Below, piece by piece: positions 33,376-59,317 of a DNA stretch of 64,000 bases. The DNA comes from Azolla caroliniana. Lineage: Eukaryota; Plantae; Polypodiophyta. Below the pieces are notes generated by a model. It did not search any database. It was not told the origin of the DNA and worked only from the letters and a program-made list of their open reading frames with translations. The translations under genes were made by a program, and so were the position numbers. The stretch lies in NCBI GenBank assembly GCA_043228905.1, contig JBHGNT010000016.1, positions 4,278,001 to 4,342,000 on the forward strand. Direction: 5' to 3'. The first letter of the stretch is position 1. Each line of letters begins with the position of its first letter.

Positions 33376-34625
33376 TGTCGCGGAGGATTCCGGCCACTAG
33401 AAGAAAAATCCGCCGGATGAGTGGGAACGGGGATGTGCACATTTTGCACATGAAAAGGGTCTTTGTATAAAACAAATGTAAATAAAGAGAATATTAATAA
33501 GTACAAGACAACATAGTTAATAGGTACTTTTATAATCCCACAAAAAGAGGGGAATGATAGTGTGTGATGGCAAAGAATCGTGGGAGAATCTTTGACAGGA
33601 AATGGCTGTAATAACAGCCTAATGTAACATCGACCCTCCGTCTCTTTGGAGCTATAAAAGGAAGGGGAGGTGTCTGTCTTGGGGATCGACCATTTTAGAG
33701 GGGAAGGTGCCGTCAGATTGCGTCTCGAAGTGCTGTAGAATTTCTGCTCTATGCATTTAGTTAGAGGGGGGTAGAGGCCTCTGCTCGTGTAGGAAGCCCG
33801 TGTGCTCCCGACAAGAGGCTCGCCAGTCAGCACGTTTGTTGAGCTTGAAGCTTCGTTTTCTGGCCTAAGGCCATTGTTGTATTCATTCTCTGTATCTAAT
33901 CGATTTCTTGGCATTATTGTGTCTGGGGTTTGTGCATGTGTGTGTGGGTTTGTTTTTGTCTGTCCGATTGCATTCATGATTGTCTCGTTATTTTTGTGCA
34001 TGGGAAGGTGTTGCTCCTTCCCTCCTCTAATTTGCACATAACTATTTGAGCCTGCGAGCCCGTGTGCTCATCTTTCGGTTTAGGGTTTAGGGTTTAGGAT
34101 CTAGTTTGAGAGGCGATTCGTGTGACCATCGGCACTGGACCGGACCGTGCTCGACACGAGCAAGGTCCTATTTATGAAGTCAGTCGACTCAAGCAACAGA
34201 GAGAAGGTTGGTCTCCTCTTGGAGACGGATGAAGGTTGACTGGGCGGTGGTTAAGAGTGTATGTAGCTATTTCAATAAGTGGCGTGATTGGAACGACGAG
34301 GGGACGTCGTCAACCAGCCCGATCACAAAGGGAGTAACAGGGGAGGTGCCGACTAGGTCGGACAAGACAAGAAGGCGAGTAGACACGGACCTGGTAGCAC
34401 CGGCTAACATTTCCAGTGGACCATCTGGAGGAGCGGCGTTGGAAGAGCTCACCAAAATTGTGAGAGACCTACAGATTGCCCATGCTCGGAGGGATGGTGG
34501 GGGTCAATCACGTGACCGGAGGCCGCATAATGGCCTTAGATGCATGTGGTGCGACGGTGTCGACCACATCCAGAGTGATTACACCAACTTCAACGAGGCG
34601 TTGAGGAACAATGTGATGTACCTGT
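33376..34625 (+). mobile_element. Truncated Ty3/gypsy 'D' of the A/B/C family: partial LTR fused to mid-gag
   Basis: Starts TGTCG; TATA block GAGCTATAAAAG as in LTR A; 34104-34625 is homologous to gag of A (DRTVLDTS, DWAVVK, ELTKIVRDLQIA, CMWCDGVDH). LTR end, PBS and gag start are deleted. Confidence 0.8.
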
Positions 34626-34903
34626 TGTTATGATATGGCAAGATTTGAACCCATGACTTTATGTTACATGGGTCGAGCTCTAGCCATTAGACTATATATT
34701 GTAATATGAAAGATATTATTTGTCTTTCCTTCTATCGTGAGTTCTACACCCTTTTCTCTCTCGTAGTACTAATTCTCATCTTTCAATACTAATTCCCTCT
34801 CTGTCTTAGTACTGTTCCTGACAGTTTGAACTTATTTGCCCGCATCCTCTTACCCCTCCTTCCTTTCATACTAATCCTCTTATCCTCCCTAGTAAAAATA
34901 ACA
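34626..34903 (+). repeat. X 5' LTR (278 bp)
   Basis: Perfect terminal inverted repeat TGTTAT...ATAACA; begins exactly where gag homology of D stops. Partner LTR not in the window. Confidence 0.75.
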
Positions 34904-35055
34904 ACTGTTAGCGCTCAGGAATACCAATATGTTTTCTCGGAGTTTTAGTGCTTAAAAGAGAAGTTTGTAGCACTAGAACAAGAAAATGATCGTTTGTTGG
35001 GGGATCTTCAACAAATAGCATTAGAAAACAACAACACGGGGAGCTGACGTTACGT

Positions 35056-35743
35056 TGTCGTGAAGAAACCCGTCCCCAGGCGCAAACCGTGTATAGCATG
35101 TGTGAACCGGCCCTTACACGTGGGCACGCTCCTTATTGTATAGTAGATAGGTAGGCACAGAATTCGAATCCTAGGTAGCAATATTCTATAGGGAGAATCG
35201 AGGAGTATCTCTGTCTGAAAGGACAAAGAGTTAATGTGATGTAAACGGGGGAAACGGCCTCCCTCCTTGAGCTATAAAAGAGAGGGAGACGGGGGAGAGA
35301 AGGGATCGTGGGGAGAGGGGACGAAGTGCTGTCGGACTGGGACCAAGTTCTTCTTCTCTGTCATTCTCCATAGCTTTCTTTTGTGCAGGTTCTCAGGAGG
35401 CTGATTCTGTCCCGTGGAACGCACGTGTGCTTCCGGCAGAATCTCCATCTTGCTCCCGTGTGTGTGTAGGTGATCAGGCGTCGGCATCCGTCTCGCCGTC
35501 CTGATCGGCTGTAATCGTTCGAGTCGCCTGCATACATACAAATACATACATATTTTTTTTATGTACATACGCTAGTGTTATCAACTCGTGTCTCCTGTGT
35601 TGATTGGGCCGCGTCCCCGTGTGCTTCTTTGTCTATACGTGAGTGAGCGTCTCTCTCTTTCTCCCTCTTTTCTCACCTATTCGTCGGTCCAAGACCCCAG
35701 TGGTCCCGCCTTGTTCTCCACGCACGCGCGTAGCAACGCGACA
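35056..35743 (+). repeat. A 5' LTR
   Basis: Direct repeat of 41474-42161; roughly 17 mostly transition differences by eye. Confidence 0.95.
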
Positions 35744-35747
35744 TATT

Positions 35748-35764
35748 TGGTGAACCCGACGTGA
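35748..35764 (+). promoter_or_regulatory. A primer-binding site, complementary to tRNA-Trp 3' end
   Basis: TGGTGAACCCGACGTGA, 4 nt after the LTR; identical in B and C. Confidence 0.85.
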
Positions 35765-35785
35765 AAGGCGGCAGAGGTATAGAAG

Positions 35786-37912
35786 ATGAGGGGGTCGGAC
35801 CTCGCAGAAGCCATGGCTTCGGCTGTGGACCGTATAGTGAATGCGCGCGAAGGCACCGGCGCCCTTGATAGGGCTATCGAGGCGGTTGTCGGTATGATCG
35901 GCCGGTTTAGTGGGAAGGATGCCACGAGCTACTTGGCATCCTACCGGGTTGAGATGGTAATGAGAGACATTCCGGAAGAGAGGCGCCTAGCCGGATTCCC
36001 TCGAGTGGCGATACCGGGCATCCATACGGCGGTGCTCGAGGTACGGGTCGAGAGCCGGACCTGGGAGGAGTTTGAAGGTCGGCTCCTCAAAAAATACGGG
36101 CTTGAAGATGCGCTTCGACTTTCGAAGCGGGACTTCATGGAGTGGGTGGAGACCCCCGACAAAGGAAGGAACGCGTCGGTGCTCCTCCGAGAGTTTGAGG
36201 AACGCTTCACGCGCCTCTCGGTGCTTGACCGGACCATTCTGGACACAAGTCGTGTCCGATTGTTTGTTAAGTCAGTTGATGAGCGGGATCGGGAGCAAGT
36301 AGGCCTCCTATTGGAGACTGATGACGGGCTGACGGCCGACTGGGCCGTGGTGAAGAGGGTCTGTGGCCGTTTCGACAAACGGCGGGAATGGGTTGACAAA
36401 GGATTGACAGGGGCGGGCTCTGTCGCAGCAAGGAAGCTCGAGCCAACACCACCAACGCGAAGGGAAGAGACCCGAGATTGGCTCGAGACCAGATCGGCTT
36501 CGACCGGCATGGTCAAGGGCTCGCCCGGGGAAGCAGACCTGGAGGAACTGACGCGGATGGTAAAGGATCTCCAGATCGCCCAGGCACGGAGGGACGATGG
36601 CGAACAGGCCCGTGACCGACGACCTCTGGCTGGAAACAGGTGCATGTGGTGTGACGCGGTTGGCCACATCCAGAAGGACTGCGGGGACTTCGCCGAGGCG
36701 ATGAGAAGCAACGTGGTGTCCCTGTGGAACGGTCGGGTGCACGCCAGCGAGACCCGAAGGCCCCTGGACCTGAACGTCAGGCGAGGAGGTATGAAAAGGC
36801 TGATGGAGGAGGCGGCGGCTCGTCACGCGGAGACCGTCCACTACTCGGCGTCAACTGGTATTCGGGTCAGAGGTAGTGAGGCCCCGAAGACGAACAAAGC
36901 CGGGTTCTGACCGATGATGCTAGAAGGCCTCGCCGGCGCACAACTAAGGAAAGAAGAGGCGGACCGCGCGGAAAAACGGGTCCGGGAGGTAACCGGGTGG
37001 AGTGACCCGGTGGAAGAAAAGACGGGCTTCGTCGAAGCCGCTTGTCAAAACTACGAGGCCCTGGTGGAGGACAATCGGGTAGGAAAAACCGGAGGGGCCG
37101 GATCCTCGCAACGATATGAAACTCGATTCGGGCAAAGGTGGAATGAGGCCGGTGTAACCGGCGCCTAGGATAATCCCAAGAAAGGCGGGTACCGGCTGGG
37201 CACAGAAATCGAAAGACCCACGGACCTGCGAAAGGTCCTGGAAAAACGAATCCTCGATAGCAAGGTGGAACTGTCGCTGAGGGAAGTGCTCGGGATCGCC
37301 AAGAAGGAGTTCCACGACTCCATCATGGACTTGGTGAAAAGGAAGAGGCTGTCGATGGAGACAGAACTGGAGAAGCTGGTGGAGGTGCGGATGACGCACA
37401 TAGAGGACATGGCGCTGGAAGACGAGTTGGCGGAGAGCCACTATTCGAGGCCACACTGGGCCAGAGCGACCACGGAGACCCCTGTGAAGATCGGAGATGT
37501 TCATGAACTAGTGGTGGCGTTGGTGGACCACGGTTCAGAAATCAATTTGATGTCCATGGACTTCTACAAGAAGGGGAAATGGCCGATCAACACCAAGCAC
37601 GGGTGGAAAATACGGGTAGCGACGCGTGCCACCGAAGAACTGCATGGTGCCTGCCCGAATGTACGAGTAAAGATCGGCGATGTCGAGATTGACCATCACT
37701 TCTTCGTGCAGGAGACGTCCTCACATCCGGTTATACTAGGAGAACCGTACATCATGGCAGCACGGATGGAGACCAAGGTGCTGGACAACGGCTCGGCCTA
37801 TGCAAGGGTCAAGAGCCAGGATGGGCGTCACTCGGTCCAGTTCCTGACGGTGAGACCGAACCATGAGCGGAACCGCGAGACCCTCGGGGGCGAAAGCCGA
37901 GAGGATTTTTAG
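35786..37912 (+). pseudogene. A gag-protease ORF (one frame, two premature stops)
   Basis: ORFs 35786, 36914 and 37265 share a frame; knuckle CMWCDAVGHIQKDC; PR ALVDHGSEIN and VILGEP; ends REDF*. Confidence 0.88.
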
Positions 37913-37968
37913 AGAGGGCTATCAAGGCGTGGGGCCGCGATAGTCCGGACACTCCGGGAAAACCCCAC
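37903..37968 (+). promoter_or_regulatory. Predicted -1 ribosomal frameshift signal of A
   Basis: G_GAT_TTT heptamer, 6-nt spacer, stem 37916-37923/37939-37946 and stem 37929-37934/37963-37968. Confidence 0.8.
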
Positions 37969-40900
37969 AAGTGTACGATAGCGAAGAAGACCTGTACCAT
38001 AGGTAGGAAATTTTGGTTCTCCGACAGCGGAGGTTGTACTATAACCAGTGTCAGTGGCAGGGAGATGAAGCGAGCGGAGGAGCGGCTCAGGGGATGTAGA
38101 GTCCTCTTCCCCGACGAGGGCATCAGCGGTGCCGTGGAGGCGGTCTCTTTTGACGATACCTTGGGCGAACTACAAAAGGTGATCGGTGAAGACCTTAGAG
38201 AAGACCGGACCGTTCCGGTGGGGTCGATAGGAATGTACGAAGTCATCGCAGACTTCGAGGAAAGGATCGGGTCGGATCGGACGGCCCGCGTGGATACGAA
38301 ATAGAAGACGGTGGATCGGAAGGTGAGGCCAGTCGCGGCTCCCTTGCCGGAGGGCAGCGAGTTGCGAATAAAGGGGGTTGCGTCGGACCCGAGTTTATGA
38401 AATCCGGCCCGCAGAGGACACACGTTCACCGACATAACGCTACGCGAGCTCAAAATCGGTGGGGGCGGCTTCCTATTGCTGGCGGAAGAGGACCGTTTTC
38501 GGGGAATGCTCGGAAGGCACGGGAAGGCTTTCGCATTCTCACCGGAGGAGATCGGGTGCGTAGACCCGATAGTCGTGGAACCGATGGTGATATTCACGGT
38601 ACCGCATGTGCCGTGGAGTCACAAATTGATTCCAGTACCTAGAGCTCACATCCCGAAGCTGATGGAGCTGTTAAAGCAGAAGGTCGAGATGGGCATCCTT
38701 GAACCGTCGAGTGCCCCATACTCGAATCGGTGGTTTACCGTGCTGAAGAAGGACGGCACGCTACACTTTATTCAAGACCCGCAGCCGGTCAACAAGGTGA
38801 CCATTCGAAACGCAGGAATCGGACCGACAATAGACGAGTTCGCGGAGGCCTTCGCCGGAAGGTCGATTTACTCGGTCGGTGATCTCTACTCGGGGTACGA
38901 TCAGTTCCTGCTAGCCATAGAGAGCAGAGACATCACGACAATGTGAACTCCTCTCGGCCTAGTACGGATGTGTACCCTACCACAAGGAGGGATGAACTCG
39001 GTGGCTCACATGGTGAACGCAATGAACAAGGTGTTGAGGGATTGTATCCCGAACATCACCATACCGTTTCTGGACGACGTCCTGATCAAGGGATGCCCGG
39101 TGGAGGAAAAGGACGAGACGATCGGACCGGACGGGTGCCGGAAATTCGTGGCGACGCACATCGATGATTGCGAGAAGGTGCTGCAGAGGTTGGAGGGCGC
39201 GAGGCTCACCTTCTCTGGGGGAAAATCGGCCTTCGGGCAATCAGAGATCATGGTCGTCGGACACCTATGCGGGTCATACGGCTGGAAATCGTCTCCGACT
39301 AAGGTAGAAGCCATCTCCGTGATGAAGGACGACTGTAGCTCGGTCACGAAGGTTCGGAGGTTCTTGGGGGCGTGCGCGTTCTACCACATATGGATCCCGC
39401 ATTACGCTCACGTCGCGGAGCTGTTATACGGGTTGCTGAAAAAAGGGCGAAAATTCGAGTGGAGAGACGAGCATACGGAGTCTGTCCGAAAGATGAAGGA
39501 AGCACTTGCCGCAGCTCTGGCGCTCCGGAAGGCTGTCTACGGAAAGGACACTCCAATTTACGTAACGATAGACACGAGTCCGACCGGGATTGGATGGGTC
39601 GTCAACCAAGAGGACGAGGACGGCATGCGTTTCCCAATCCGGTTCGGCGCGAAGGTCCTCAGCGAGCGACAACGAGGATACGCCCAGGTTAAACGCGAGC
39701 TCTAGGGTATCGTTTCGATTGTAAAGGCCGATAAAGACTACCTGATTGGGGCGGAGGTAATTATCGAGACAGACTGCCTGCCAATTCTTGGCATGGTTTC
39801 CAGATGCGCGACGCCGGACCTGGCAATGCTCAGGTGGATAGCGTACATCAAGTCCCTGAATCCGGAAATATGACAAATTTCCGGGAAAGACAATGCCATG
39901 GCCGACATGCTTTCAAGGGCGAGGTTTGAAAATGAGGGCGGCATGGTTTCGGAGGACGAGCAAGTCGGCGTGGACTTCTTCGAGGCGGCTCACGTAACAA
40001 CCGGTAGGGAATGCACTCCAACGCTTAATGATTTCGACGAGAGCGAGTACAACGGGGAGTGGCTGCAGATCGGCGGGTTCCTGAAAACAATGACACCGGA
40101 CGCGGCATGGACAACGGATGAGGCCAACCGGATTCAGAAGAAAGCCTACCGATTCTTTCTCCGGGACAGGTACATATGGAAGCACCTGAAGAAGAGGAAC
40201 GGCATCCCGCTCTGAGTGGTGGCGAAGAAGGAGGAACAGGAGGATTTGCTGACGGCGTACCACGATAGCCCTAGGGCTGGACACCGTGGAACGTGGGCCA
40301 CGTTTGAAAAGCTAAAGGGGAAGTACTGGTGGCCGGGACTATACCGGGACGTGCATCGTTTCGTGACGACTTGCGAAAGCTGTCAGGTGCACTCCATGAT
40401 CTGACACCGGGACGAGCTTCACCTGACCTACCCTCTGACCGTCCACTTCAAGTGGATGGTGGATTTGGTGACGATGCCAATGGGGGTAGGGCAGATGCGG
40501 TATCTGGTGCTGGCTCGAGAGGATCTAACGAGCCAGGTTGAAGGCCGAGCTCTGCAGAACAAGACGACTACAGCCATATGCCGTTTTTTGTTTGAGGACG
40601 TGGTATGCCGATACGGGTGCGTAGGGAAGATCGTGGCTGACCGTGGTGAGTTGGACGCAGAAGAGGCCGAGGAGCTGTTCGACCAGCTAGGAGTCAAACT
40701 TTCGCTCACCACAACGTACAATCCGGAGGCGAACGGGAAGGTGGAGCGCGGACACGGGCCAATTGTCAAAGCACTAGTACGAGCGTGCGGAGGCCAAGTC
40801 GGGAACTGGCCACGGCTGCTACCTTATGCCTTGTGGGCGGACCGGACTATGCACAGTTCGGGAACCGGGTTCATGCCGACCGAGCTTATGTTCGGACAGA

Positions 40901-41397
40901 AGCCGATCATGACAACAGAGCAAACGATCTCCTCGTGGGCCACGGTGGACTGGAGGGATGAGATGAGCCGGGAGGAACTGTTGGCGGCGCGGATTCGACA
41001 GCTCGAGCGGAGGCCGGAGGACGTAGAGCGAGCCGCGGAGAAACTTCGGGTAGCAAGAATAAGGAACAAAGCCCGGTTCGACCGAACACACCGGCTCCGG
41101 CCAAGGAAGATCGAGGAAGGCGACTGGGTGCTAGTCTACGACAGCAACCTCGACAATCAGCACAGGGCCACGCGGAAGTTTGCGAGGAGGTGGTTCAGGC
41201 CTTACGTAGTTACAGGCGCCAACGACAATGGGACGTACCATCTCGCGGAGCTCGACGGTACGAGAATGGCGATACCGGTAGCGGGGAAGAGGATCAAAGC
41301 GTTCAAGAAACGACATGACGGTGAGCCGGAGCTAGGGGGCATGGACAGCAACGACGAGCAGCCTGAGGCGGAGGACGAACCAGTAAACGAGGAATAA
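37903..41397 (+). pseudogene. A pol (RT-RNase H-integrase), -1 frame, multiple stops
   Basis: DLYSGYDQ, LPQG, FLDD; RH DTSP..IG; IN H.....GH..C..C, ADRGE, NPEANGKVERGH; acidic tail; no chromodomain seen. Confidence 0.9.
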
Positions 41398-41473
41398 AAG
41401 CAACGACCGGTTCTCTCCAGTAGGAACCCAATTTTGGCGCATACCGGTGCATGCGCGGTTAGGTGGGGGCGGA

Positions 41474-42161
41474 TGTCGTGAAGAAACCTGTCCCCAGGTG
41501 CAAACCGTGTATAGCGTGTGTGAACCGGCCCTTACACGTGGGCACGCTCCTTATTGTATAGTAGATAGGTAGGCACAGAATTCGAATCCTAGGTAGCAAT
41601 ATTCTATAGGGAGAATCGAGGAGTATCTCTGTCCGAAAGGACAGAGAGTTAATGTGATGTAAACGGGGGAAACAGCCTCCCTCCTTGAGCTATAAAAGAG
41701 AGGGAGACGGGGGAGAGAAGGGATCGCGGGGAGAGGGGACGAAGTGCTGTCGGACTGGGACCGAGTTCTTCTTCTCTGTCGTTCTCCATAGCTTTCTTTT
41801 GTGCAGGTTCTCAGGAGGCTGATTCTGTCTCGTGGAACGCTCGTGTGCTTCTGGCAGAATCTCCATCTTGCTCCCGTGTGTCTGTAGGTGATCAGGCGTC
41901 GGCATCCGTCTCGCCGTCCTGATCGGCTGTAACCGTTCGAGTCGCCTGCATACATACAAATACATACATATTTTTTTTATGTACATACGCTAGTGTTATC
42001 AACTCGTGTCTCCTGTGTTGATTGGGCCGCGTCCCCGTGCGCTTCTTTGTCTATACGTGAGTGAGCGTCTCTCTCTTTCTCCCTCTTTTCTCACCTATTC
42101 GTCGGTCCAAGACCCCAATGGTCCCGCCTTGTTCTCCACGCACGCGCGTAGCAACGCGACA
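41474..42161 (+). repeat. A 3' LTR
   Basis: Direct repeat of 35056-35743. Confidence 0.95.
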
Positions 42162-42854
42162 ACGTGTACAACAACTTGAAGTGACTATTGTATCACTACA
42201 ATAACAAGGATCAAGCACTCAAGGGACTCACAAAGAACCCAAGATCGGACTTCCTATGAAATTTGATGGGACCCGATCACAGTTCAGAGGTTTTCTTAAT
42301 TAGGAACGCTTAGTGATTCAAATGCATCCTTCTTGATATCCCACCGATGCATCACGAGTGGGAATAGTAGGCACGACTTTGGTATGGTTGGCCCCCCTCT
42401 TAGAAAAAAACTCTCCCTTGTTAAATAATTTCGAAGAGTTTATTATCGAGTTTAAAGCATGTTTTGGAGATACCGACAGTGTTCGGATGACAATCAACAA
42501 AATCCGAAGATTGTGCCGAGGTGAGCAGTCGGCCTCGGCTTATGCTGCGGATTTCCATCTTCTCGCCACTAATATTCCCTAGGATGACCAGGCATTAATG
42601 GAGCAATTTCGTTTTGGCCTACCTAATGATGTCAAGGATTTACTCTTAACTTTCCCCAAAGAGCCAAAGTCATTAATAGAAGCAATCAGTCGCGCGGTGC
42701 GTGCAATAACCGCCTTTTCGAACGACGCTCACAGATGCCAAAGACAAGATCAGAGCCCACCTACGCCTCAGTTGTAGCAAAACCTTTTCCAAAGGGGTCA
42801 TATAATGTGTCTCTAGCAAATACTCCAACTCCGATGGAAATCAACACCACATGT

Positions 42855-43501
42855 TGTCGTGAAGAAAACCGTCCCCTGGCGCAATCGGTGAATAGCGCAC
42901 ATGAACCGGCCCTTCATGTGTGCGCACTCTTAATGTATATAATAGAGAATTAGGTACAGAGAGAGATCCAGGGTAGTTAGATTCGGTAGGTAGGAAGTAA
43001 ATGAGGGAGACGGCTCCCTTCTTGACGCTATAAAGGAGAGGGAGACGCAGGGAGAACGAAAGGGCATTAAGGAGGACGAAGTGCTGTCGAACCGGAACCG
43101 AACGCTTCTCCTCTGTCTGTTCTCAATTACCCTTCTCTGCAGGTTTCGGGAGGCTCGCGCTGCTTCGAGGAACGCCCGTGTGCTTCCGGCAGCACCTCCA
43201 TCCTATTCCCATTTCGTGCGTCGACGAACAAGCATCGGCATCTGTCCGCCGGCCTGTTCGGTTGTAGCCGCTCGCGTGTTCTGTTGTGTACTCTTTATTC
43301 GTTAATATACAAACACTTGTTTCTTCCTGTCTCTGTGTCCATTCGCGTCTTCTGTGTTGACGGGCCACGCCCCTGTGTTTGTTTGCTCATACGTGACCGG
43401 GCGTCTCTCTCATCCTCTTTCCCCTTCTATCACCTGCTCTTCGGTTCAAGACCCCGGTGGTCCCGCCTTGTTTCTCCACGCACGCGCGTAACAACGCGAC
43501 A
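42855..43501 (+). repeat. B 5' LTR
   Basis: Direct repeat of 49245-49891. Confidence 0.95.
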
Positions 43502-43545
43502 TCTTTGGTGAACCCGACGTGAAGCAGGCGGCAGAGGAGCAGAAG

Positions 43546-45674
43546 ATGAGGGGGTCGGATCTTGCAGAGGCCATGGCTTCGGCCGTGGACCGGATAGTGA
43601 GCGCGCGCGAGGGCACTAGCGCCCTTGACAGGGCTATTGAGGCGATCGTTGGTATGATCGGCCGGTTCAGTGGAAAGGATGCCACGAGTTATTTGGCGTC
43701 CTATCGGGCGGAGATGTTGATGAGGGATATTCCGGAAGAGAGGCGTCTTGCCGGATTCCCTCGAGTGGCGATGCCAGGCATCCATGCGGATGTACTCGAG
43801 GTCCGGGCGGAGAGCCGGACCTAGGAAGAGTTCGAAGGACGGCTCCTGGAGAAATACGGGCTGGATGACGCGCTTCGACTTTCGAAGCGGAGCTTCATGG
43901 AGTGGGTGGAGTCCCCCAACAAAGGAAGAAATGCGTCGGTACTCCTCCGGGAGTTTGAGGAACGCTTTGCGCGCCTTTCGGTGCTCGATCGGACTATTCT
44001 GGACACAAGTCGTGTCCTACTGTTTGTCAAATCGGTTGACGCACGGGATCGGGGGCAAGTTGGCTCCTTACTGGAAACCGAAGACGGGCTGACGACCGAC
44101 TGGGCCGCGGTAAAGAGAGTCCGCGGCTGTTTTGACAAACGGTGGGAGTGGGCTGATACAGAGGACTTGTCGCAGCAAGGAAGCTCGAATTGATACCGCA
44201 GGCACGAAGGGAAGAGACCCGGGAGTGGCTCGAAACCGGTTCGCCTTCGATCGGCGTGATCAGAGGCTCGTCCGGGGGAACATCTTTGGAGGAGTTGACA
44301 CGAGCGGTAAAGGATCTCCAGATCGCCCAGGCTCGGAGGGAAGGCGGCGATCAGGCTCGTGACCGACGGCCTCCGGCAGGAAATAGGTGCATGTGGTGCG
44401 ACGAGGTCGGCCACATCCGGAAAGACTGCGGGGACTTTATGGAGGCTTTGAGAAGCCGGGTAGTGTACCTGTGGGAGGGTCGGGTGCACGCCAACGATAC
44501 CCGAAGGGCCCTCAACTGAAACGACGGAAGAGGAGGAATGAAAAGGCTGATGGAAGAGGCGGCAGCCCGGCACGTGGAGGCCGTCCACTACTTAGCGTCA
44601 GCCGGTATTCGGGTCGGGGGCAGCGGGGCCCAGAAGGAGAGCAAAGCCGAGTTCTGGCCGACGGTGCTGGAAGGCCTCGCTGGTGCCCGACTGAAGAGGG
44701 ACGAGGCGGACCGCGCGGAGAAGCGGGTCCAGGAGGTAACTGGGTGGAGTGACCCGGTCGAAGAAAAGACGGGTTTCGTCGAAGCAGCTTGCCAGAACTA
44801 CGAGGCTCTAGTTGAAGACAAACGGGTGGGTAGAAACGGAGGGACTAGACCCTCACAAAGATACAAAACCCGATTCGGGCCGAAACGGAACGAGGTCGGT
44901 GAGTCCAGTGCCCGGGATAACCACAAGAAGGGCGGATACCGGTTGGGCACAGAGATCGAAAGGACCACGGACCTACGAAAGGTCCTGGAAGAACGAATTC
45001 TCGACAGCAAGGTGGAACTGTCGTTGCGAGAGGTGCTCGGGATAGCCAAGAAGGAGTTCCACGACTCCGTCGTGGACTTGGTGAAGAGGAAGAGGCTGTC
45101 GACGGAAGTAGAACCGGAAAGGCCGGTGGAAGTGCGGACGACGCACATAGAGGACACGACGCTGGAAGACGAGTGGGCGGAGAGCCACTATTCGAGGCCA
45201 CACTGGGCCCGAGCGACCACGGAAACCCCGGTGAAAATCGGAAATGTTCAGGAACCGGTGGTGGCACTGGTGGACCACGGTTCGGAAATAAACCTTATGT
45301 CCATGGACTTCTACAAAAAGGGGAAATGGCCAATCAACCCCACAAATGTATGATAGAGGCACGGGTGGAAGATACGGGTAGCGACGCGCGCCACCGAGGA
45401 ACTACACGGGGCCTGCCCAAACGTGCGAGTCAAGATCGGCGACGTCGAAATAGACCAGCACTTCTTTGTGCAAGAAACGTCCTCGCACCCGGTCATTCTA
45501 GGGGAACCATACATTACGGCAGCGCGAATGGAGACCAAGGTGCTGGACAACGGGTCGGCTTACGCGAGGGTCAAGAGCCAAGACGGGCGTCATTCAGTCC
45601 AGTTCCTGATGGTACGACCCAACCATGAGCGAAACCGCGAGTCCCTCGGTGGCGAGAACCGAGAGGATTTTTAG
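43546..45674 (+). pseudogene. B gag-protease ORF, disrupted
   Basis: Homologous to A gag-PR; CMWCDEVGHIRKDC, ALVDHGSEIN; stops, a frameshifting deletion near 44160 and an insertion near 45340. Confidence 0.88.
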
Positions 45675-45730
45675 AGAGGGCTGCCAAGGCATGGGGCCGC
45701 GACAGTCCGGACACTCCAGGAAAACCCCAC
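45665..45730 (+). promoter_or_regulatory. Predicted -1 frameshift signal of B
   Basis: G_GAT_TTT, then GGGCTGCC/GACAGTCC and TGGGG/CCCCA stems. Confidence 0.8.
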
Positions 45731-48700
45731 AAATGTACGATAAAAGCGAAACCAAAGAATCCTTGTACCATAAGTAGGAAGTTTTGTTTCTCCAACAACG
45801 GGGGGTGTACGATAGTCGGCGTCATAGGTCGAGAAAAGACAAGGGCGGAAGAGCGACTTCGGGCGTGCAGAGTTCTCGGGCCCAGCGAGGAAATCAACGG
45901 AGCCGTGGAGGCGGTCTCCTTCGACGATACCTTGGGAATACTGCGAGAGGTGGTCGGAGAGGGCCTTAAAGAGGACCAGACGATACCGGTCTATTCAGAA
46001 GAGATTTATGGAGTCATCGCGGACTTCGGTCGGGGGCTCGAGTTGGATCGGATGGCCCGGGTTAACACGAAGTACAAGACTGTGGACCGGAAGGTAAGGC
46101 CAGTCGTGGCACCCTTACCGGAGGGCAGCGAGTTGCGAATCGAAGGGGTCGCATCGGACCCCAGTTTACGTGATCCGGCCTGCATAGGACACACCTTCAC
46201 CGACAGAACGCTATGGGAGCTCAAAATCGGTGGGGGCGGGTTCCTACTACCGGCGAAAGAAGACCGGTTTCGGAGAATGCTCGGAAAGCACGAGAAAGCC
46301 TTCGCATTCTCGCCGGGAGAGATCGGGTGTGTAGACCCGACAGTCGTGAAGCTGATGGTGATATTCACGGTACCACATGTGCCGTGGAATCTCAAACCAA
46401 TTTCGGTACCGAGAGCTCACATCCCGGAGTTGATGGAGCTATTGAGGCAGAAAGTCAATATGGGTATCCTCGAACCATTGAGTGCCCCGTACTCGAACCG
46501 ATGGTTTACCGTACCGAAGAAGAACGGGACGTTGCGCTTCATTGAAGACCTGCAACCGGTCAACAGAGTGACCATTCGGAACGCAGGAATCGGACCAACG
46601 ATAGACGAGTTCGCGGAGGCCTTCGCCGGAAGGTCGATCTACTCGGTCGGTGATCTGTACTTGGGGTACGATCAGTTCCAACTAGCCGTAGAGAGTAGAG
46701 ACATTACGACGATGCGGACTCCTCTCGGCCTAGTGCGGATGTGTACCCTGCCACAAGGAGGAACGAACTCGGTGGCCCACATGGTGAATGCGATGAACAA
46801 GGTGCTGAGGAATTGTATCCCGGACATCACCATGCCATTCTTGGATGACATCCCGATCAAGGGATGTCCGGTGGAGGAAAAGGACGAAACGATCGGACCG
46901 GACGAATGCCGGAAATTCGTGGCGACACACATTGACGACTGCGAGAGGGTGCTGCAGAGGCTAGAGGACGTGAGGATCACCTTCTCCGGGGAGAAATCGG
47001 CCTTCGGGCAATCGGAGATCATGGTCTTCGGACATCTATGCGGAGCGTATGGCCGGAAACCGTCTCCGGCTAAGGTGGAAGCCATCTCCGCTATGGAGCC
47101 CGACTGTAACTCGGTCACGGAGGTACGGAGGTTCTTGGGAGCATGCACGTTCTACCACATATGGATCCCGCATTACGCCCACGTTGCCGAGCCGCTATAT
47201 GGGTTGCTGAAAATGGGGCGAAAATTCGAGTGGCGAGACGAGCATGCGGAGTCGGTCCGAAAAATGAAGGAGGCTCTTGCTGCAGCTCCGGCACTCCGGA
47301 AGGCTGTCTACGAGAAAGGCACTCCCATCTACATAACGGTAGATACGAGTCCGACTGGAATCGGATGGGTCGTCAACCAAGAAGATGAGGACGACATTCG
47401 GTTCCCAATCCGGTTCGGCGCGAAGGTCCTCAGTGAGCGACAGCGAGGATACGCCCAGGTTAAACGCGAACTCTGGGGTATCGTTTCGGCGGTGAAGGCC
47501 GATAAAGACTATCTGATTGGGACAGAGGTGATTATCGAGACGGGCTGCCTGCCGATTCTCGGCATGGTTTCCGGATGCGCAACCCCGGACCTGGCAATGC
47601 TCAGGTGGATAGCGTACATCAAGTCACTGGATCCGGAAATACGACACATTTCCGGGAAAGACAATGCCATGGCCGACATGCTTTCGAGGGCGTGATTCGA
47701 CGACGAGGGCAACATGGTTTCGGAGGACGAGGAAGTCGGCGTAGACTTCTTCGAGGCGGCTTACGTAACAACCGAGGGGGGAAGCACTCCGGCGCTTAAC
47801 GATTTCAACGAGAGCAAGTACGACGGGGAGTGGCTGCAAATTGGGGGATTCTTAAGGACAATGATGTCGGACGCATCGTGGACAAGGGACGAGGCCAACC
47901 GGATCCGGAAGAAAGCATACCGATTCTTTCTCCGGGACGGATACTTGTGGAAGCACCCGAAGAAGAGGAACGACATCCCACTTCGAGTAGTGGCAATGAA
48001 GGAGGAACGGGAGGAATTGCTGAAGGCCTACCACGACAGCCCCTGGGCTGGGCACCGTGGGACGTGGGCCACGTTCGAGAAGCTGAAGGGGAAGTACTTG
48101 TGGCCGGGACTGTACCGGGACGTGCATCGGTTCGTGACAACTTGTGAGAGCTGTCAAGTGCACTCCGTAGTCCGACATCGGGATGAGCTTCACCCCACGT
48201 ACCCTCTGGCCATCCACTTCAAATGGATGGTAGATTTGGTGACGATGCCGATGGGCGTAGGACAGATCTGATATCTGGTACTGGCCCGAGAGGACCTGAC
48301 GAACCAGGTGGAAGGCCGAGCCCTGCAGAACAAAACAACCGCGGCCGTGTGCCGGTTCCTGATCGAGAACGTGATATGCCGATACGGGTGCGTTAGAAAG
48401 ATCGTGGCTGACCTCAGGGAGTTGGACGCCGAAGAGGCCGAGGAGCTGTTCAACCAGTTGGGGGTCAAGCTCTCACTCACCGCAGCATACAATCCGGAGG
48501 CAAATGGGAAGGTAGAGCGCGGGCACGGGCCAATCGTCAAAGCGCTAGTCCGGGCATGCGGAGACCAGGTCAGGAATTGGCCGCGACTGTTACCCTATGC
48601 CTTGTGGGCGGACCAGACAACGCACAGTTCGGTAACTGGGTTCATGCCGTCGGAACTCATGTTCGGACAGAAGCCGATCATGCCGATGGAACAGACGATC

Positions 48701-49132
48701 TCCTCTTGGGCGACAGTAGACTGGAGCGACGAAATGAGTCGGGAAGAATTGCTAGCAGCGCGTATACGATAGCTCGAGCGGAGGCCAGAGGACGTGGAAC
48801 GAGCGGCGGAGAGATTTCGGACGGCGAGGATGAAGAACAAAGCCCGGTTTGACCGGACGCACCGGCTCCGACCGAAGAAAATCGAGGAAGGCGACTGGGT
48901 GCTAGTTTACGACAACAGCCTCGACAACCAGCACCGAGCAACACGGAAGTTCGCGAAGCGGTGGTTCGGGCCTTACGTGGTAACGAGCGCCAACGACAAC
49001 GGGACGTATCACCTGGCGGAACTCGATGGTACGAGAATGGCGATGTCGGTAGCAGGGAAGCGGGTCAAAGTGTTTAGGAAACGCCACGACGACGAACCGG
49101 ATCTAAGAGGCCTGGACAGCGAAGACGAATAG
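45665..49132 (+). pseudogene. B pol (RT-RH-IN), -1 frame
   Basis: Open from the slippery site to 47695, then point stops; FLDD, WFGPY. Confidence 0.9.
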
Positions 49133-49244
49133 TCCGAAACGGAGGGCGAACCGATGGACGAAGAAACGGGACCCAGACCGGTTTTCTCCAACCAGAAACC
49201 AATTTTGGCGCATACCGGTGGATGCGCGGTTAGGTGGGGGTGGA

Positions 49245-49891
49245 TGTCGTGAAGAAAACCGTCCCCTGGCGCAATCGGTGAATAGTGCACATGAACCGGC
49301 CCTTCACGTGTGCGCACTCTTAATGTATATAATAGAGAATTAGGTACAGAGAGAGATCCAGGGTAGTTAGATTCGGTAGGTAGGAAGTAAATGAGGGAGA
49401 CGACTCCCTTCTTGACGCTATAAAGGAGAGGGAGACGCAGGGAAAACGAAAGGGCATTAAGGAGGACGAAGTGCTGTCGGACCGGAACCGAACGCTTCTC
49501 CTCTGTCTGTTCTCGGTTACCCTTCTCTGCAGGTTTCGGGAGGCTCGCGCTGCTTCGAGGAACGCCCGTGTGCTTCCGGCAGCACCTCCATCCTATTCCC
49601 ATTTCGTGCGTAGACGAACAGGCATCAACATCTGTCCGCCGGCCTGTTCGGTTGTAGCTGCTCGCGTGTTCTGCTGTGTACTCTTTATTCGTTAATATAC
49701 AAACACTTGTTTCTTCCTGTCTCTGTGTCCATTCGTGTCTTCTGTGTTGACGGGCCACGCCCCTGTGTTTGTTTGCTCATACGTGACTGGGCGTCTCTCT
49801 CATCCTCTCTCCCCTTCTATCACCTGCTCTTCAGTTCAAGACCCCGGTGGTCCCGCCTTGTTTCTCCACGCACGTGCGTAACAACGCGACA
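49245..49891 (+). repeat. B 3' LTR
   Basis: Direct repeat of 42855-43501. Confidence 0.95.
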
Positions 49892-52188: not shown

Positions 52189-52921
52189 TGTCGTAGTATG
52201 AATCACACACTACATGAAATATGTAAAATACTATATCTGATTTAAAGTACGTATAATAAATAAAATAAAATATTAAAAATATTTATTACGTGCATATGGC
52301 AGGATTCAAACCCTGTAACCTCCATGTAGACAAACCCTAACCTTACCATTGTACTAACTTATCCTAAGTGTTCTAAATATAGATTTAATACGTATAAGAC
52401 CTTTATTTACGCCTACCTTTATTAAAAGGTAAGTCATGCATTTTTTTAGAATGCATGAATACTTTATTTATAAGAAGAATGTACACCAATAAAAAATGAC
52501 TCGTGCACATCTAACAAGCATGAGCACTATATTTAGGAAATAAAAGCATAGTGTAAAAAGGCAACTCATGCACATTTAGTGTGCATGAACACTTTAAAAA
52601 AAAAGCATGAAGCTATGCTTAGCCTCTTCCATCCTTATATAAGGAGGAGAGAAAGATGTATGGGGGGTTGTTGATTATTTTACAAGGATTGATTAATAAA
52701 TTTTTTTTCGTGGTATTCACGATTTTGCCATCTATTTCTCTCTTACATTCTAAGTATCAATTAATACACTATACTCGTGGGATTCACGAGTTTTTCATAT
52801 CTTTCTTTCCTACCATATATTTCATATTCTTAATTATCTTAGAATCTTCTTTTCTCCTAGTCCAAAACCGTGGTGGTTCCCACCCGATTCACGCAACGAT
52901 CCGGAGCCGAAAGGCACGACA
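52189..52921 (+). repeat. C 5' LTR
   Basis: Direct repeat of 58586-59317. Confidence 0.95.
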
Positions 52922-52959
52922 AAAGTGGTGAACCCGACGTGAACACGAGTGGCAAGGAG

Positions 52960-54999
52960 ATGGAAAATTAACCAGAGGCTAACAACATGATGATGATGTT
53001 CGAGCGGATGCTTCAAGAGCAATGTGCGATGTCGGAGATAGCGGCGGTAGTAGAGCGGCTCGTGCAACGGATCAGGCAATTCAACGGAAAGGACATATCA
53101 CGCTATCTTCGGGACTACAAGGCGGAAATGATACAGTGTGGGATTTCAGAAGGACTGCAAGTGACATCCTTTAACCGGGTAGCTACCGACGGGCTTCAAG
53201 CAAGTATCCACGGGCTACGACAACAAAATCCAACGTGGGAAGCGTTTGAAGATGCGCTAAAGACCACGTTCGCTATCGTGGACTCCTCCAAGGCAACGTG
53301 GAGAGGATTTGAGGATTGGGTGGAAATGTCAGACAAGGGGATGAAGGTCCTCGATGTGTTTTCGGCATTCAAAAGTCGGTTCGGGAGGTTGTTTGCGAGA
53401 GATCAAGCTATCCTCGCACCAGATAAAGTTATTATGTTCTTACGAGCCGTAGACGTCCGGGACCGGAAGGATCTTGGAGTGCTTCTAGAGGACATGACTA
53501 CCGAGAGTGGCCTTACCAAAACATGGGAAAATGTGCGGGATATCGTCGCGCGATACACATAGAGGGGGCAATGGCTTGCCAACGAAGAGAAGAGGGTTTC
53601 GGAACCGATTCCGAAACCGAGATCCGGATCGAAATACTATCAATCGCGGGCTTGGGAGACTACGACCGAGAAGGGAATCGACGCAACCACGGTAGAGCAA
53701 TTGCTGAAAGAAATGGAGAATCTGAAAATCGCGATGGTAAAGAAGTCGGATGACCGTCCCACAAGCTCGAAGTATATGGACCGTCGGTGCATATGGTGCG
53801 ATAGCACCGAACATGATTGGAGGGATTGCGACGACCACAAGGAGGCATTACGACGGGATCTTGTCTGTTACGAGGGAAATCGGATTCATTCGATGGACTC
53901 TCGGAAGCCACTCCGACCGAACTTCCGGAAAGGCAGCATGAAGAAGGTCTTAGAGGAGGAGATCGCGGTGAAAGACAATTATGCAACAACCGCGGGAATA
54001 CGTGTGGGGGAGTCAACTGCAGCAAAGGCATCTTTTTGGCCGGAAGTGTTAGAAATTTCGAAGAAAGCTGACCATGATGAAATCCGAAGCGCCGTGGAAT
54101 GTATCCGGGAAGCTACGGGATGGGAGTGCCCTGTAGATAAGAATAGCGTACATGCACTATGTCAATTGCATGAAGTGTATGTGGATGAAAAACGACGGCG
54201 CACGGATGATGCGGCCGGACCATCAAAGACACCAGAAAGTTGGAACTCCGGAGGGAAGGGAAAAGAAAAGACAATTCCGGCATTCAAGTTCGCTTCAGAC
54301 ATCGAGCAACGGACGGACATAAAGAAAGTGTTCGAGGAGAGAATCCTCGATAGCCGGGTAGAATTTTCGCTTTGGGAATTACTCGGAATAGTGAAGAAGG
54401 AGCTCCACGATCTTCTTGTGGATCTCGTGAAGAGAAAAAGACAAAGTATGGAGGAAAATGCGTCGATGGTGAATGCAAATACCGTTCTGATGAACAACAC
54501 CGAAGTGGAGGGCGAGATTCCGAATTCCCACTATACAAAGCCACACTGGGCGCGTGCAACTACCGAGACTCCGGTCCGAATCGGCAACATCAAAGAGCCC
54601 GTGCTAGCATTGATTGATCACGGATCAGAGATCAATTTGATGTCTAAGGAGTTCTACCAGAAGGGGAAGTGGCCTATTAACACCAATCATGGATGGAAGA
54701 TCCGGGCGGCCACTAAAGCAACGGAAGATCTATTTGCGGCTTGTCCGGATGTGACGGTGAAGATTGGGGATGTCGAGATCGACCAAAATTTCTTCGTACA
54801 AGACGCAGTCTCACACTCTGTGATACTTGGACAACCCTTTATCACGGCTTCACGGATGGCAACAAAGGTGCTCGATAGCGGTGCTTTCGCACGAATTCGG
54901 AGCCAAAGCGGAGGGAAATCCGTCCAATTCCTAACTGTGCCAGCAACTCATGAAAGGAACAAGAGAAAGCTCTTGTCCCAAACAAGGATGGATTTTTAG
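52960..54999 (+). pseudogene. C gag-protease ORF (one frame, premature stops)
   Basis: CIWCDSTEHDWRDC knuckle, HWARATTETPV, ALIDHGSEIN; ends RMDF*. Confidence 0.88.
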
Positions 55000-55053
55000 A
55001 GCGGATTGTTGCGGAGTGGGGCAGTGATAGTCCGAGAAGCCTTGATACCCCAC
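54990..55053 (+). promoter_or_regulatory. Predicted -1 frameshift signal of C
   Basis: G_GAT_TTT, then CGGATTGTTGC/GTGATAGTCCG (several G-U pairs) and GTGGGG/CCCCAC. Confidence 0.75.
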
Positions 55054-58000
55054 ACAGGAAGAAAACTCTCGGAGCAAAACAAGTACGAATCGGTCCGGAT
55101 GGGGCATCTACGTACACGGCCGTAACCGGAGGAATGAAGAAAGAATACTGAAAAGTGGAGGATAAGTTATGGTCGGCATCAATAATAAAAGAAGATGAAG
55201 AAATCGTGGGAATAGTCAAAGAAGTGTTCTATGGGAGCATGCTACAACGGCTTGAAGAGCTCGCGAAAGATACAAGCTAGGGAGACTGGGTAGTCCCGAT
55301 GGAATCGGTCGAGATGTACGAGATCATTGTGAAAATGGGGCCGGATGCGCTTTGCAAAGAAGAAGCAATGGTAAGTACGAAATACAAGACCGTGGAGAAG
55401 AAGGTGAAACTGGCCGTGGGACCACTACCCGCCAATAGCGAACAAAAGAGGAAAGAAGTTTCAGGAGATCCGACACTTCGGAAGTCCGTGGATATCGGAC
55501 ATGCCTTCATGGATGAGACCCGGAAGAAAATTCGGATCGGTGGAGGTGGTTTCATTTTACAAAATGAAGAAGCACGATTCCGAGGGATGTTGGAACAACA
55601 TGGGAAAGCATTTGCATTCACATCGAAGGAGATAGGGTGCATTGATTCGAAGATAGTGGAGCCGATGGTGATCTTCACGATTGACCATGTGCTGTGGAAC
55701 CTGAAGCCGATTTCGGTGCCGCGGGCGCATATTCCCAAAATCATCAACTTGCTCAAGGAGAAGGTGGCGATGGGGATTCTAGAGCCATCAAACGCTCCGT
55801 ACTCAAATCGATGGTTTACGGTTCCGAAGAAGAATGGGTCACTCCAATTTATCCAAGACTTGCAACTGGTGAACAAAGTCACGATCCGGAACTTCGGAGT
55901 TGGTCTGATAGTGGACAAATTTGCGGAAGCATTTGCCAGTCGAGCGATATACTCCATCGGAGACCTATACTCCGGATATGACCAATTCCAACTAGTCGTG
56001 GAGAGCTGAGACATCACTACCATGCGGACACCGATAGGATTAGTCTATATGTGCACACTACCACAAGGCGCAACAAACTTGGTCACACATATGATGGATG
56101 CAATGAACAAGGTGGTCCGGGACTGCATTCCGGAGATAACAATGCCATTCCTAGATGACATTCCGATAAAAGGATGCACGGTGGAAGAAAAAGACGAGAC
56201 TACGGATGATCGGGGATGCCGACAGTTCCTAATCGACCATATTCGCGATTGCGAGAAAGTGCTTCGAAAGTTAGAAGATGTGCACCTAACACTTTCCGGT
56301 GAGAAATCGGCATTCGAGCAAGAAGAAATATTGGTAGTCGGACATCTATGTGGGCCCTACGGCCGAAGACCGTCCCCAACCAAGATCGACGTGATTCAAG
56401 CTATGAAAGAAGTATGCGAGTCACAATCCGAAGTCCGAAGGTTTCTTGGAGCACGTGCATTCTACCACATATGGATTCCGCACTATGCACATATTGCGGA
56501 CCCACTCTATCACTTGTTGAGGAAGGGTAAGAAGTTTGAATAGAAACCGGAGCATACCAAAGCCGTGAAGAAGCTCAAGAAATCACTACAGACGGCAAAA
56601 GCACTAAAGAAGCCGAACTATGACCGACCGATCATAGTAACGGTTGACACAAGTCCAACCGGAATCGGATGGGTCATCAATCAAGCTGATCCGGATGGTT
56701 CGCTATATCCGATCCGATTCGGAGCAAAGGTTCTCAACGAAAGGCAACGTGGATATGCACAAGTCAAAAGAGAATTATGGGGAGTCATGTCGGCAAATAA
56801 ATCGGATCGAGATTATTTGATCAGAGCCGAAGTAGTGATCGAAACAGATTGTCTTCCAATACTCGGGCTGATGCGGTGTTGCATGATACCGGATGTGGCT
56901 ATGCTAAGGTGGATTGCATATGTTAAGTCGCTTAATCCGGAGGTACGCCACATCTCCGGAAAAGACAACGCGGTAGCGGATATGCTATCAAGGGCGCGGT
57001 TCAGAGATGACATAACCGAATCCGATAATGAAGACGTTTCTGAAGACTACTTTGCTTCGGAGCACATATGCTGGGTAAACGTAATCCGAGAATTCCGGGA
57101 AGAAGAATACGAGGGAGAAAGCTTGCTGATCAGGAAAGTGCTACAAGAAATCGAGGTATCATCGGAAAATAAAGAGAAGAGAGCCGAGATCCGAAGTAAG
57201 AAGCGGCAAGTCCGAAAGTTCTTCTTGAAAAATGGATTAATATGGAGGGAGCCGAAAAGACCGGATGGCATACCACTTCGGGTAGTCGAGACGAAAGAGC
57301 AACGAAACCGGATAATGTCTGAATTTCACGAATCTGATTGGGCTGGACATCGAGGAACATGGGCAACTTTTGTGAAAATCAAACAAAAATATTGGTGGAA
57401 AAACATGTACAAAGATATAGCGGAGTTCATGGAAAGCTGCGAGAAGTGTCAAATCTACTCCGGAGTTCGACACCGAGATGAGTTACATCCGACATTCTCA
57501 CCAACAATCAACTTCAAATGGATGGTCGATATTGTAGCCATGCCAACTGGGATCGGACAAAATAAATACTTGGTGTTAGCTCGGGAAGATCTCACTAACC
57601 AAGTAGAAGGTCGGGCGCTACGGAGGAAAACGTGTTCTGCGGTATGCCAATTCTTTTTGGAAGAAGTGTTTTGCAGGTACGGGTGCGTAGGACAAGTGAT
57701 TGCGGATCGGGGAGAACTCGACTCTGATAAAGCTAAGGAATTCTTCACCAAACATGGAGTTCGGTTAACACTGACAACGACATACAATCTGGAAGCCAAC
57801 AGGAAGATCGAACGAGGACATAGTCCAATCGTCAAAGCACTTGCGAAGGCATGCGATGGAAGGGTGAAGGATTGGCCGCATATGCTTCCGTATGCACTAT
57901 GGGCGGATCGGACGACGCATAGCTCCGTAACCGGTTACATGCCGGCAGAACTCATGACCGGACAAGCACCGGTAATGCCAACGGAAACCGCGATCGCGAT

Positions 58001-58529
58001 ATGGATAGTGCTACCGTGGAAGGAAGAGATGAGCCGGGAAGAACTACTAGCGGTCCGGATATGACAACTAGAGGGAAGACCGGAAGACGTAGCGGAAGCA
58101 ATGCGTCGAAAACAAGAAGCGCGATTCCGGAATAAAAGCCGGTTCGACACAAAGCACCGACTATGACCGCGTAAGATTGAAGAAGGAGATTGGGTGATTG
58201 TCTACGACAGTAGTTTGGATCATCAACATACAACGATGTAGAAGTTCGCAAAAAGGTGGTTCGGGCCATACGAGGTTCGGAAAGTTTTCGACAACGGAAC
58301 TTACCGACTATGCGAGTTGGATGGAACGATGCTATGAGTGCCTATAGCTGGGAAACGGGTGAAGATTTTCAAGAAGCGGACTGATGAAGAACCCTATGTG
58401 ATCCTAGACAAGACCAACAAGGAGCAATCGGACGAAGATCGCGGTGATGCGGAAAGCGAAGAAAGTGGATTACAACTCATAGTTGACTTAAGGGGAGAAT
58501 TGGAGGAAGCTTCGGATGAAGGTGAATAG
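54990..58529 (+). pseudogene. C pol (RT-RH-IN), -1 frame, point stops
   Basis: Same motifs as A/B: DLYSGYDQ, MPFLDD, ADRGE, WFGPY. Confidence 0.9.
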
Positions 58530-58585
58530 CAAGCATCGGGGACTTCGGCACATACCGGAGGATGTGCGGGTTCGGAGGGGGCGAG

Positions 58586-59317
58586 TGTCGTAGTGTGAAT
58601 CACACACTACGTGAAATATGTAAAATACTATATCCGATTTAAAGTACTTATAATAAATAAAATAAAATATTGAAAATATTTATTACGTGCATAGGGCAGG
58701 ATTCAAACCTTGTACCTCCACGTAGACAAATTTCAACCTTACCATTGTACTAACTTATCCTAAGTGTTCTAAATATAGATTTAATACGTATAAGACCTTT
58801 ATTTACGCCTACCTTTATTAAAAGGTAAGTCATGCATTTTTTTAGAATGCGTGAATACTTTATTTATAAGAAGAATGTACACCAATAAAAAATGACTCGT
58901 GCACATCTAACGAGCATGAGCACTATATTTAGGAAATAAAAGCATAGTGTAAAAAGGCAACTCATGCACATTTAGTGTGCATGAACACTTTAAAAAAAAA
59001 GCATGAAGCTATGCTTAGCCTCTTCCATCCTTATATAAGGAGGAGAAAAAGATGTATGGGGGGTTGTTGATTATTTTACAAGGATTGATTAATAATTTTT
59101 TTTTCGTGGTATTCACGATTTTGCCATCTATTTCTCTCTTACATTCTAAGTATCAATTAATACACTATACTCGTGGGATTCACGAGTTTTTCATATCTTT
59201 CTTTCCTACCATATATTTCATATTCTTAATTATCTTAGAATTTTCTTTTCTCCTAGTCCAAAACCTCGGTGGTTCCCACCCGATGCATGCAACGATCCAG
59301 AGCCGAAAGGCACGACA
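58586..59317 (+). repeat. C 3' LTR
   Basis: Direct repeat of 52189-52921. Confidence 0.95.

Follow-up and report, generated by a model that had tools for sequence, protein, structure and literature searches.

The window analysed here, the whole 64,000-nucleotide stretch of contig JBHGNT010000016.1 from the fern Azolla caroliniana, contains three related Ty3/gypsy retrotransposons, A, B and C, all of which sit inside one other gypsy element. This host gypsy element is left in pieces at 34860-35055, 42162-42854, 49892-52188 and 59318-60100, comprising gag pieces, then protease (PR), reverse transcriptase (RT), RNase H (RH) and integrase (IN), with A and B lying in its gag and C in its pol; we take it to be Tcn1-like. 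It has a candidate -1 signal of its own between gag and protease-pol (50147-50191), where G_UUA_AAC is followed by a 6-nt spacer that includes the gag stop, then by an 11-bp stem (z -2.1), and its -1 frame reaches the protease motif with one stop, in what is a single decayed copy. Elsewhere in the window are part of a fourth ORF1 belonging to the family of A, B and C (34178-34633), an intronless CAP/PR-1-like host gene on the minus strand (21802-22545; Pfam CAP, E 4e-21), a Copia-type element (25490-30852) with an LTR pair at 25490-25947 and 30395-30852, and a Copia-type RVT_2 region on the minus strand (61300-63630). The three elements of interest are:

35056..42161, + strand: element A, a full-length, decayed Phygy-type Ty3/gypsy element; LTRs 35056-35743 and 41474-42161
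42855..49891, + strand: element B; LTRs 42855-43501 and 49245-49891, identity 629/647
52189..59317, + strand: element C, of a divergent subfamily; LTRs 52189-52921 and 58586-59317, identity 710/732

Lineage and state of the elements

The three elements, of 7,037-7,129 bp, share the marks of Ty3/gypsy retrotransposons: LTRs of the form TG...CA, the same primer site 3' of the 5' LTR, and the domain order Gag-PR-RT-RH-IN. The primer site, present in 13 of 82 loci, is presumably complementary to tRNA-Trp, and no tRNA gene lies within the 64-kb window. Element A, with an LTR identity of 672/688, is flanked by an exact target-site duplication (ACGT/ACGT), and the flanks of B (ATGT/ACAT) are consistent with ACGT after CpG decay. 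Those of C (52185-52188 and 59318-59321) are unequal, ACGT against CCGC, with each fitting NCGN and the LTRs being 97% identical, which suggests recombination or local deletion. In-frame stops interrupt both ORF1 and pol in all three elements, and their LTRs are 97-98% identical; hence A, B and C are dead, but fairly recent, insertions.

Phygy elements are defined by a 4-bp NCGN target site and a tRNA-Trp primer in the available text of the 2019 plant survey (Neumann et al. 2019, PMC6317226), which gives their ORF organisation as not determined and their length as 7,656-9,968 bp, a descriptive range from one species. A, B and C resemble them in the NCGN target site, a presumed Trp-type primer site, the compact internal region, and the absence of any extra domain seen; no Pfam match to a chromodomain or an additional RNase H was found in the pol pieces of the window, or in the pol of the related loci L032 and L081. 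They differ in being 7.0-7.1 kb, below the reported 7.7-10.0 kb, although length is not a defining criterion, and in belonging to a family that is also found in a fern and in liverworts, rather than in one species. The nearest named homologues overall are from Physcomitrium, Riccia and Adiantum, and among named homologues the top scores over the protease region go to Physcomitrium proteins (51-56%), followed by those of Adiantum and Riccia. On the marks of target site and presumed primer site, A, B and C are Phygy-type Ty3/gypsy elements. As they are related by descent, the three do not constitute independent evidence for any feature they share, and independent support comes instead from related loci.

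The junction between Gag-protease and pol

The coding features around the junction are:

35783..37912, + strand: ORF1 of A, with a Gag-like region, DUF4100 and protease; stops at 36908 and 37166
37448..37879, + strand: protease domain at the ORF1 end of A, with a D-H-G-S motif and a retropepsin/Ddi1-type fold
37903..37912, + strand: putative slippery heptamer G_GAU_UUU of A (37903-37909) and ORF1 stop UAG (37910-37912)
37903..41397, + strand: pol of A in the -1 frame, with a linker of ~130 residues, RT, RNase H and integrase; several in-frame stops
45665..45674, + strand: heptamer G_GAU_UUU and stop UAG of B
45665..47695, + strand: -1 frame of B, starting at the heptamer and running for 676 codons without a stop across RT and RNase H
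54990..54999, + strand: heptamer G_GAU_UUU and stop UAG of C

In all three elements the last codons of ORF1 are GAT TTT, and the initial annotation was right that G GAT TTT TAG closes ORF1 at 37903, 45665 and 54990. The sequence GGATTTTTA is confined to the three junctions on both strands of the window, and a wider junction pattern including the start of the downstream stem has 3 matches against 0.04 expected, a number reached in 0/100 shuffles. The heptamer, which is non-canonical though tested in PEMV, lies within the overlap of the two ORFs: the -1 frame, which carries RT-RH-IN, has a stop 12 codons upstream of it in each element. From the heptamer this frame stays open for 133 codons in A, 53 in C and 676 in B, as expected from the earlier proposal that pol continues in the -1 frame, over a long stretch in B.

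On the structural model, the protease is encoded at the end of ORF1 and not in pol. The model of the ORF1 end, built on a 108-row alignment, has a pLDDT of 90.6, and Foldseek matches it best to Ddi1 RVP domains (E 2e-7), then to the XMRV, HIV-1 and EIAV proteases. By sequence, two Pfam aspartyl-protease models are matched by 17 and 16 of the 108 members, below the cut-off, a PDB sequence search gave chance-level matches only, and no protease model matched the pol ORFs scanned. The stretch of ~130 residues between slip site and RT (38000-38300; 1937-2340 in L001) is conserved across the lineage with no convincing Pfam match, and may be an unnamed domain.

Relatives came mainly from a metagenome scan, in which 103 were confirmed and 80 kept, the contigs being from one set of assemblies that may collapse many copies. 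A prokaryote genome scan yielded two loci, of which L081 (1-3841, in a cyanobacterial assembly) was added to the set; this and L082 (in a Streptomyces assembly) are probably contamination of bacterial records by plant-type retrotransposon sequence. Scans of viral contigs found no relative.

The junction is covered in 63 related loci, and in 41 of them the heptamer is followed by an in-frame stop, with TAG, TAA and TGA all used. The heptamer is out of frame in 1, present alone in 7, two of which have it in flanking sequence that is unrelated, and absent from 14, most of which are decayed or truncated, and which include the variants L032 and L037; the run of five T at the heptamer is conserved in most loci. 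Where both the protease end and the RT start can be placed (35 loci), pol is in the -1 frame in 26, in the same frame in 5 and in the +1 frame in 4. Each of the five same-frame loci has an ORF1 stop and none is continuous, and a single continuous ORF was rejected as the normal state; P0148, a distant, long-branch relative, does have one continuous Gag-PR-RT-RH-IN ORF, and represents a sister family with fused ORFs or else a mutant copy. Nine loci, which fall into some five junction types, carry a -1 ORF of 1,149-1,168 codons from the heptamer. In loci with long ORFs, no more than 2-38 codons of the -1 frame are open ahead of the heptamer. The distance from the heptamer to the conserved YKT motif of RT varies in whole codons (127-148). 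Among ORF1 proteins reaching the protease end, DF is terminal in 42/67, or 50/93 in a wider search, and others, including those of Physcomitrium and Adiantum, extend five residues beyond DF; endings with DF at or near the terminus are spread over a 33-row protease tree, long branches included.

Translation of the -1 frame from the heptamer leaves a signal in the substitutions between relatives. In the linker, which spans codon 23 to the first Met that the loci share, pN stays lower than pS in 10/10 pairs, at ratios of 0.2-0.7 that are uncorrected and come from mutually dependent pairs, and pS over the first 22 codons is below that of the linker, again in 10/10 pairs. Hence the region ahead of this Met is protein-coding, with the signal itself under extra nucleotide constraint.

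The predicted RNA structure

Stems begin 5-6 nt after the heptamer in A, B and C, where they were first described and inside the 5-9 nt expected of a programmed -1 cassette, and each can be extended into a predicted pseudoknot of two stems (S1 and S2):

37916..37968, + strand: predicted H-type pseudoknot of A; S1 37916-37923/37939-37946, S2 37929-37934/37963-37968
45678..45729, + strand: predicted pseudoknot of B, the weakest of the three; S1 45678-45685/45701-45708, S2 45692-45696/45725-45729
55002..55053, + strand: predicted pseudoknot of C; S1 55002-55012/55024-55034 (11 bp), S2 55016-55021/55048-55053

The initial annotation had also described a compensatory change from A-U to G-C in the stem of B, and a pairing of the loop with a downstream CCCCAC in all three elements. 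The change is there, but the fully paired 8-bp stem is not, since a C·A mismatch that is common among copies lies beside it. Similarly, the loop pairing holds in A (37963-37968) and C (55048-55053), whereas in B it is cut to 5 bp (TGGGG/CCCCA).

A simple ungapped scan recovered an H-type fold in 11/11 representatives, with 0-2 of 100 shuffles reaching the score. Other positions scoring at least as well as the junction numbered 5/865 in A, 98/856 in B and 0/868 in C, and 1/716, 4/779, 1/723 and 1/708 in four further elements, placing the junction in the top 0.6% of positions for 6/7 elements, B being the exception. A strict scan found no pseudoknot at the junction of the distant L081, which was also left out of the junction alignment (43 collected, 42 distinct junctions used). 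On this alignment 91% of cells of S1 and S2 are paired, against 35-48% for slid partners. Double changes occur at 7/14 pairs (5/500 shuffles), a count that ignores the relatedness of the junctions and that a slide of -3 also reaches. Rfam has no family at the junctions, and nested folding was better than shuffles in only 3/8 cassettes, with S1 in the minimum free energy (MFE) structure in 6/8.

Probable frameshifting, its alternatives and its variants

The likely mechanism at this junction, to which we give a probability of roughly 0.87, is -1 ribosomal frameshifting between Gag-protease and RT-RH-IN. Four lines of sequence evidence combine in its favour, namely the frame layout, the conservation of heptamer and stop, the coding signal from the heptamer, and the covarying stem, and these same lines support the virus-like recoding switch that had been proposed for the locus. 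A, B and C are themselves dead copies, and it is their intact relatives from which the mechanism is deduced. Most ribosomes would halt at the ORF1 stop and yield Gag-PR, and a minority would step back one base at G_GAU_UUU and yield Gag-PR-RT-RH-IN, so that the junction would read ...D-F in the 0 frame, then L in the -1 frame. Ribosomes would be stalled by the predicted H-type pseudoknot 5-6 nt downstream of the heptamer, and a stop adjoining the heptamer would help the slip in those subfamilies that have one. From the layout of the ORFs, protease would be made at one per Gag, equimolar with it, leaving RT and IN scarce. The same GGAUUUU has been tested as a -1 site in PEMV, where it has a 5-nt spacer, needs its U run and benefits from a nearby stop; against the slip, it allows only partial P-site re-pairing (available text of PMC4737148).

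The two stems of the predicted structure do not contribute equally to this argument. Covariation was proposed as a check, and S1 bears it out on the 42-junction alignment: its register is the same in 11/11 representatives, with C, L032 and L037 having a longer stem of 11-13 bp, and it carries most of the reliable covariation. The structural claim is better supported for stem 1, with its fixed register and covarying pairs, than for stem 2. The -1 shift might be real but stimulated only by the S1 hairpin, with its internal mismatches, and the adjacent stop, leaving the pairing of loop and CCCCAC incidental; we regard this as unlikely, and as a variant within the frameshift explanation that takes about a quarter of its probability. 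Beyond the concentration of covariation in S1, it would account for the MFE structures of A, B and L006, in which part of the loop is paired locally, for the aligned columns of S2 holding a single unambiguous compensatory change (U-A to C-G in L035), and for the lack of specificity in L032 and L037, whose loops pair equally well with the 3' regions of some other subfamilies as with their own. However, the 3' strand of S2, the C-run, is kept 11-16 nt from S1 while L3 changes in sequence, length and codon phase, and this strand changes together with the loop in L035, L032 and L037, such that the altered loops of L032 and L037 meet a complementary strand in place of the C-run, while the A-type loop forms only 3-4 bp with the 3' regions of these two. 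Sequencing reads also speak against an incidental S2: across three DNA runs and one RNA run, in which read recruitment favours conserved cores, the only variants of at least 12% in 37903-37950 are at 37921, 37922 and 37941, corresponding to the change and mismatch of B, and none lies in 37903-37920 or in either S2 strand. We infer that S2 would form and stimulate the slip.

Other explanations would dispense with frameshifting altogether. Pol might be made separately from an internal AUG, through reinitiation or a sub-genomic RNA, with the heptamer region in another role, and a Met ~105-111 codons in, ~23 residues before YKT, is indeed present in 12/12 aligned long-ORF loci. Yet the ~100 codons upstream of it stay open with pN below pS, nothing would account for the invariant heptamer that closes ORF1, and wider homologues have Leu (16), Val (4), Met (4) or Ile (3) at this position (n=27), such that a universal pol start at this Met was rejected on the 23/27 with another residue; we consider separate initiation very improbable. 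Less likely still, in our estimation, would be an intron spliced from some transcripts to fuse the frames, as it is at the equivalent junction of Ogre, a fellow non-chromovirus lineage (available text of PMC6317226). An Ogre-type intron was rejected on three counts. A stop-rich spacer is lacking, as 15 loci picked for their long ORFs have 0 stops over 375 nt in the pol frame against 3-20 in the others; no donor-like motif is common to at least 4/6 families; and 25 RNA reads, of low depth and 80-95% identity and all from a single polyA run of a related species, span the junction and show no joint. Three polyA runs of a related species, with 351, 215 and 663 reads over element A, gave no splice joint with RNA support among the 15 joints listed, but with 38 further joints unlisted they carry no weight here. 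An equally remote prospect is that the T5 run makes RNA polymerase or reverse transcriptase slip, with the mRNAs that gain a base then being read normally. The run is kept in most loci, but it is short, L037 has the same layout with only three T in GAT TTC, and no insertion at the run appears among the reads and contigs listed. A downstream structure at a fixed spacing of 5-6 nt fits a ribosome rather than a polymerase. Read-through of the Retand type was also rejected, with pol in the -1 frame in 9/9 loci having a full-length pol ORF from the heptamer.

Two subfamilies lacking the common heptamer retain a related cassette. L037 (4444-4518) has G_GAU_UUC, a stop five codons later inside S1, a 13-bp S1 and a different S2, and its ending matches the DF-x-x-x-PL ORF1 ends of Physcomitrium and Adiantum proteins. 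The near-intact L032 has an ORF1 of 761 codons and a pol of 1,106 codons in the +1/-2 frame, joined (2482-2560) by AG_GUU_UUU_UAC_UAG and a 5-nt spacer, one base shorter than usual, with the stems keeping their register; a protein from a second contig has the same ending. AG_GUU_UUU is the -2 site of PRRSV (available text of PMC7618472), and shortening the spacer by 1-2 nt favours -2 shifting (available text of PMC3458567). It is possible, though less likely than not, that in L032 the same pseudoknot has been retuned to -2 frameshifting through the change from GAU to GUU and the loss of one spacer base, while a one-base deletion, a +1 shift, or a restart at the AUG in the pol frame just upstream of AG_GUU_UUU are possible alternatives. 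It shares AG_GUU_UUU with the -2/-1 site of PRRSV nsp2, but the latter needs protein factors and acts without RNA structure, whereas in L032 a pseudoknot is predicted 5 nt after the site.

The arrangement can be placed among known recoding signals. It is like alpharetroviruses (Rous sarcoma virus, MAV) in having protease in Gag, which makes the viral enzyme equimolar with it (available text of PMC12789967 and PMC3185560), and like Rous sarcoma virus in a probable -1 shift into pol, at a slippery site directly before the stop, with a predicted pseudoknot as stimulator (available text of PMC12002268). In contrast, A, B and C are retrotransposons without env, use a different heptamer, and have a compact predicted H-type structure rather than a double pseudoknot; the comparison is a working analogy and not one of membership. 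With the umbraviruses and dianthoviruses, as in PEMV2, the elements share the non-canonical G_GAU_UUU, a ~5-nt spacer, a stop that lies close to the foot of the structure or directly at it, and plant ribosomes (available text of PMC4737148 and PMC5009743). The viral signal, however, combines a bulged hairpin with long-range pairing to the 3' end, whereas the partner strand in A, B and C is 11-16 nt downstream, and its product is an RdRp rather than RT and IN.

Among plant elements, Ogre and Retand of the Tat clade similarly have Gag-protease as ORF1 with RT-RH-IN downstream (PMC6317226, Additional file 5), but are much larger, have an extra RNase H, and join the two parts by an intron (Ogre) or a single in-frame stop (Retand). 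The initial annotation's generalisation that most plant LTR elements have a single ORF or place protease in pol was therefore overstated, since a Gag-protease ORF1 prevails in Ogre and Retand. Tcn1 and Selgy, from non-seed plants, have overlapping ORFs in different frames, but the break precedes the protease (GAG:o:PROT-RT), and the source gives neither frame nor signal (PMC6317226, Additional file 5). The layout GAG-PROT:o:RT is absent from that file, and a 2003 survey (Gao et al. 2003) found no gag-pol arrangement other than +1 among plant LTR elements, according to the available text of a 2016 review (PMC5009743). The cassette was unreported in the openly accessible literature searched, and is unmentioned in the available portions of PMC7466625, PMC3350952, PMC11963269, PMC2864245 and PMC13468544. 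A Gag-protease ORF1 being already known from Ogre and Retand, the novelty lies in a -1 junction that follows the protease.

It is possible, if doubtful as a joint reading, that the whole Phygy lineage, across mosses, liverworts, ferns and perhaps beyond plants, depends on an alpharetrovirus-like pseudoknot switch between Gag-PR and Pol, with L032 set at -2. Were this true, L032 would be a natural -2 site in a retroelement driven by RNA structure, where the spacer rule has been shown only on engineered mRNAs. The cassette of ~70 nt would fill, in testable form, the gap left for the Phygy ORF layout by the 2019 survey, and would explain why gene predictors split these very common repeats or invent introns in them. 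Its natural variants, with the stop adjacent or five codons later, with GAU UUC, or with GUU UUU and a shorter spacer, offer material for plant recoding studies, and the cassette itself would be a counterpart of the umbravirus slippery site that is carried by plant nuclear DNA and has its pseudoknot close by. These elements suggest that plant non-chromoviruses control the junction of Gag-protease and RT in three ways: through an intron in Ogre, an in-frame stop in Retand, and a -1 frameshift in Phygy.
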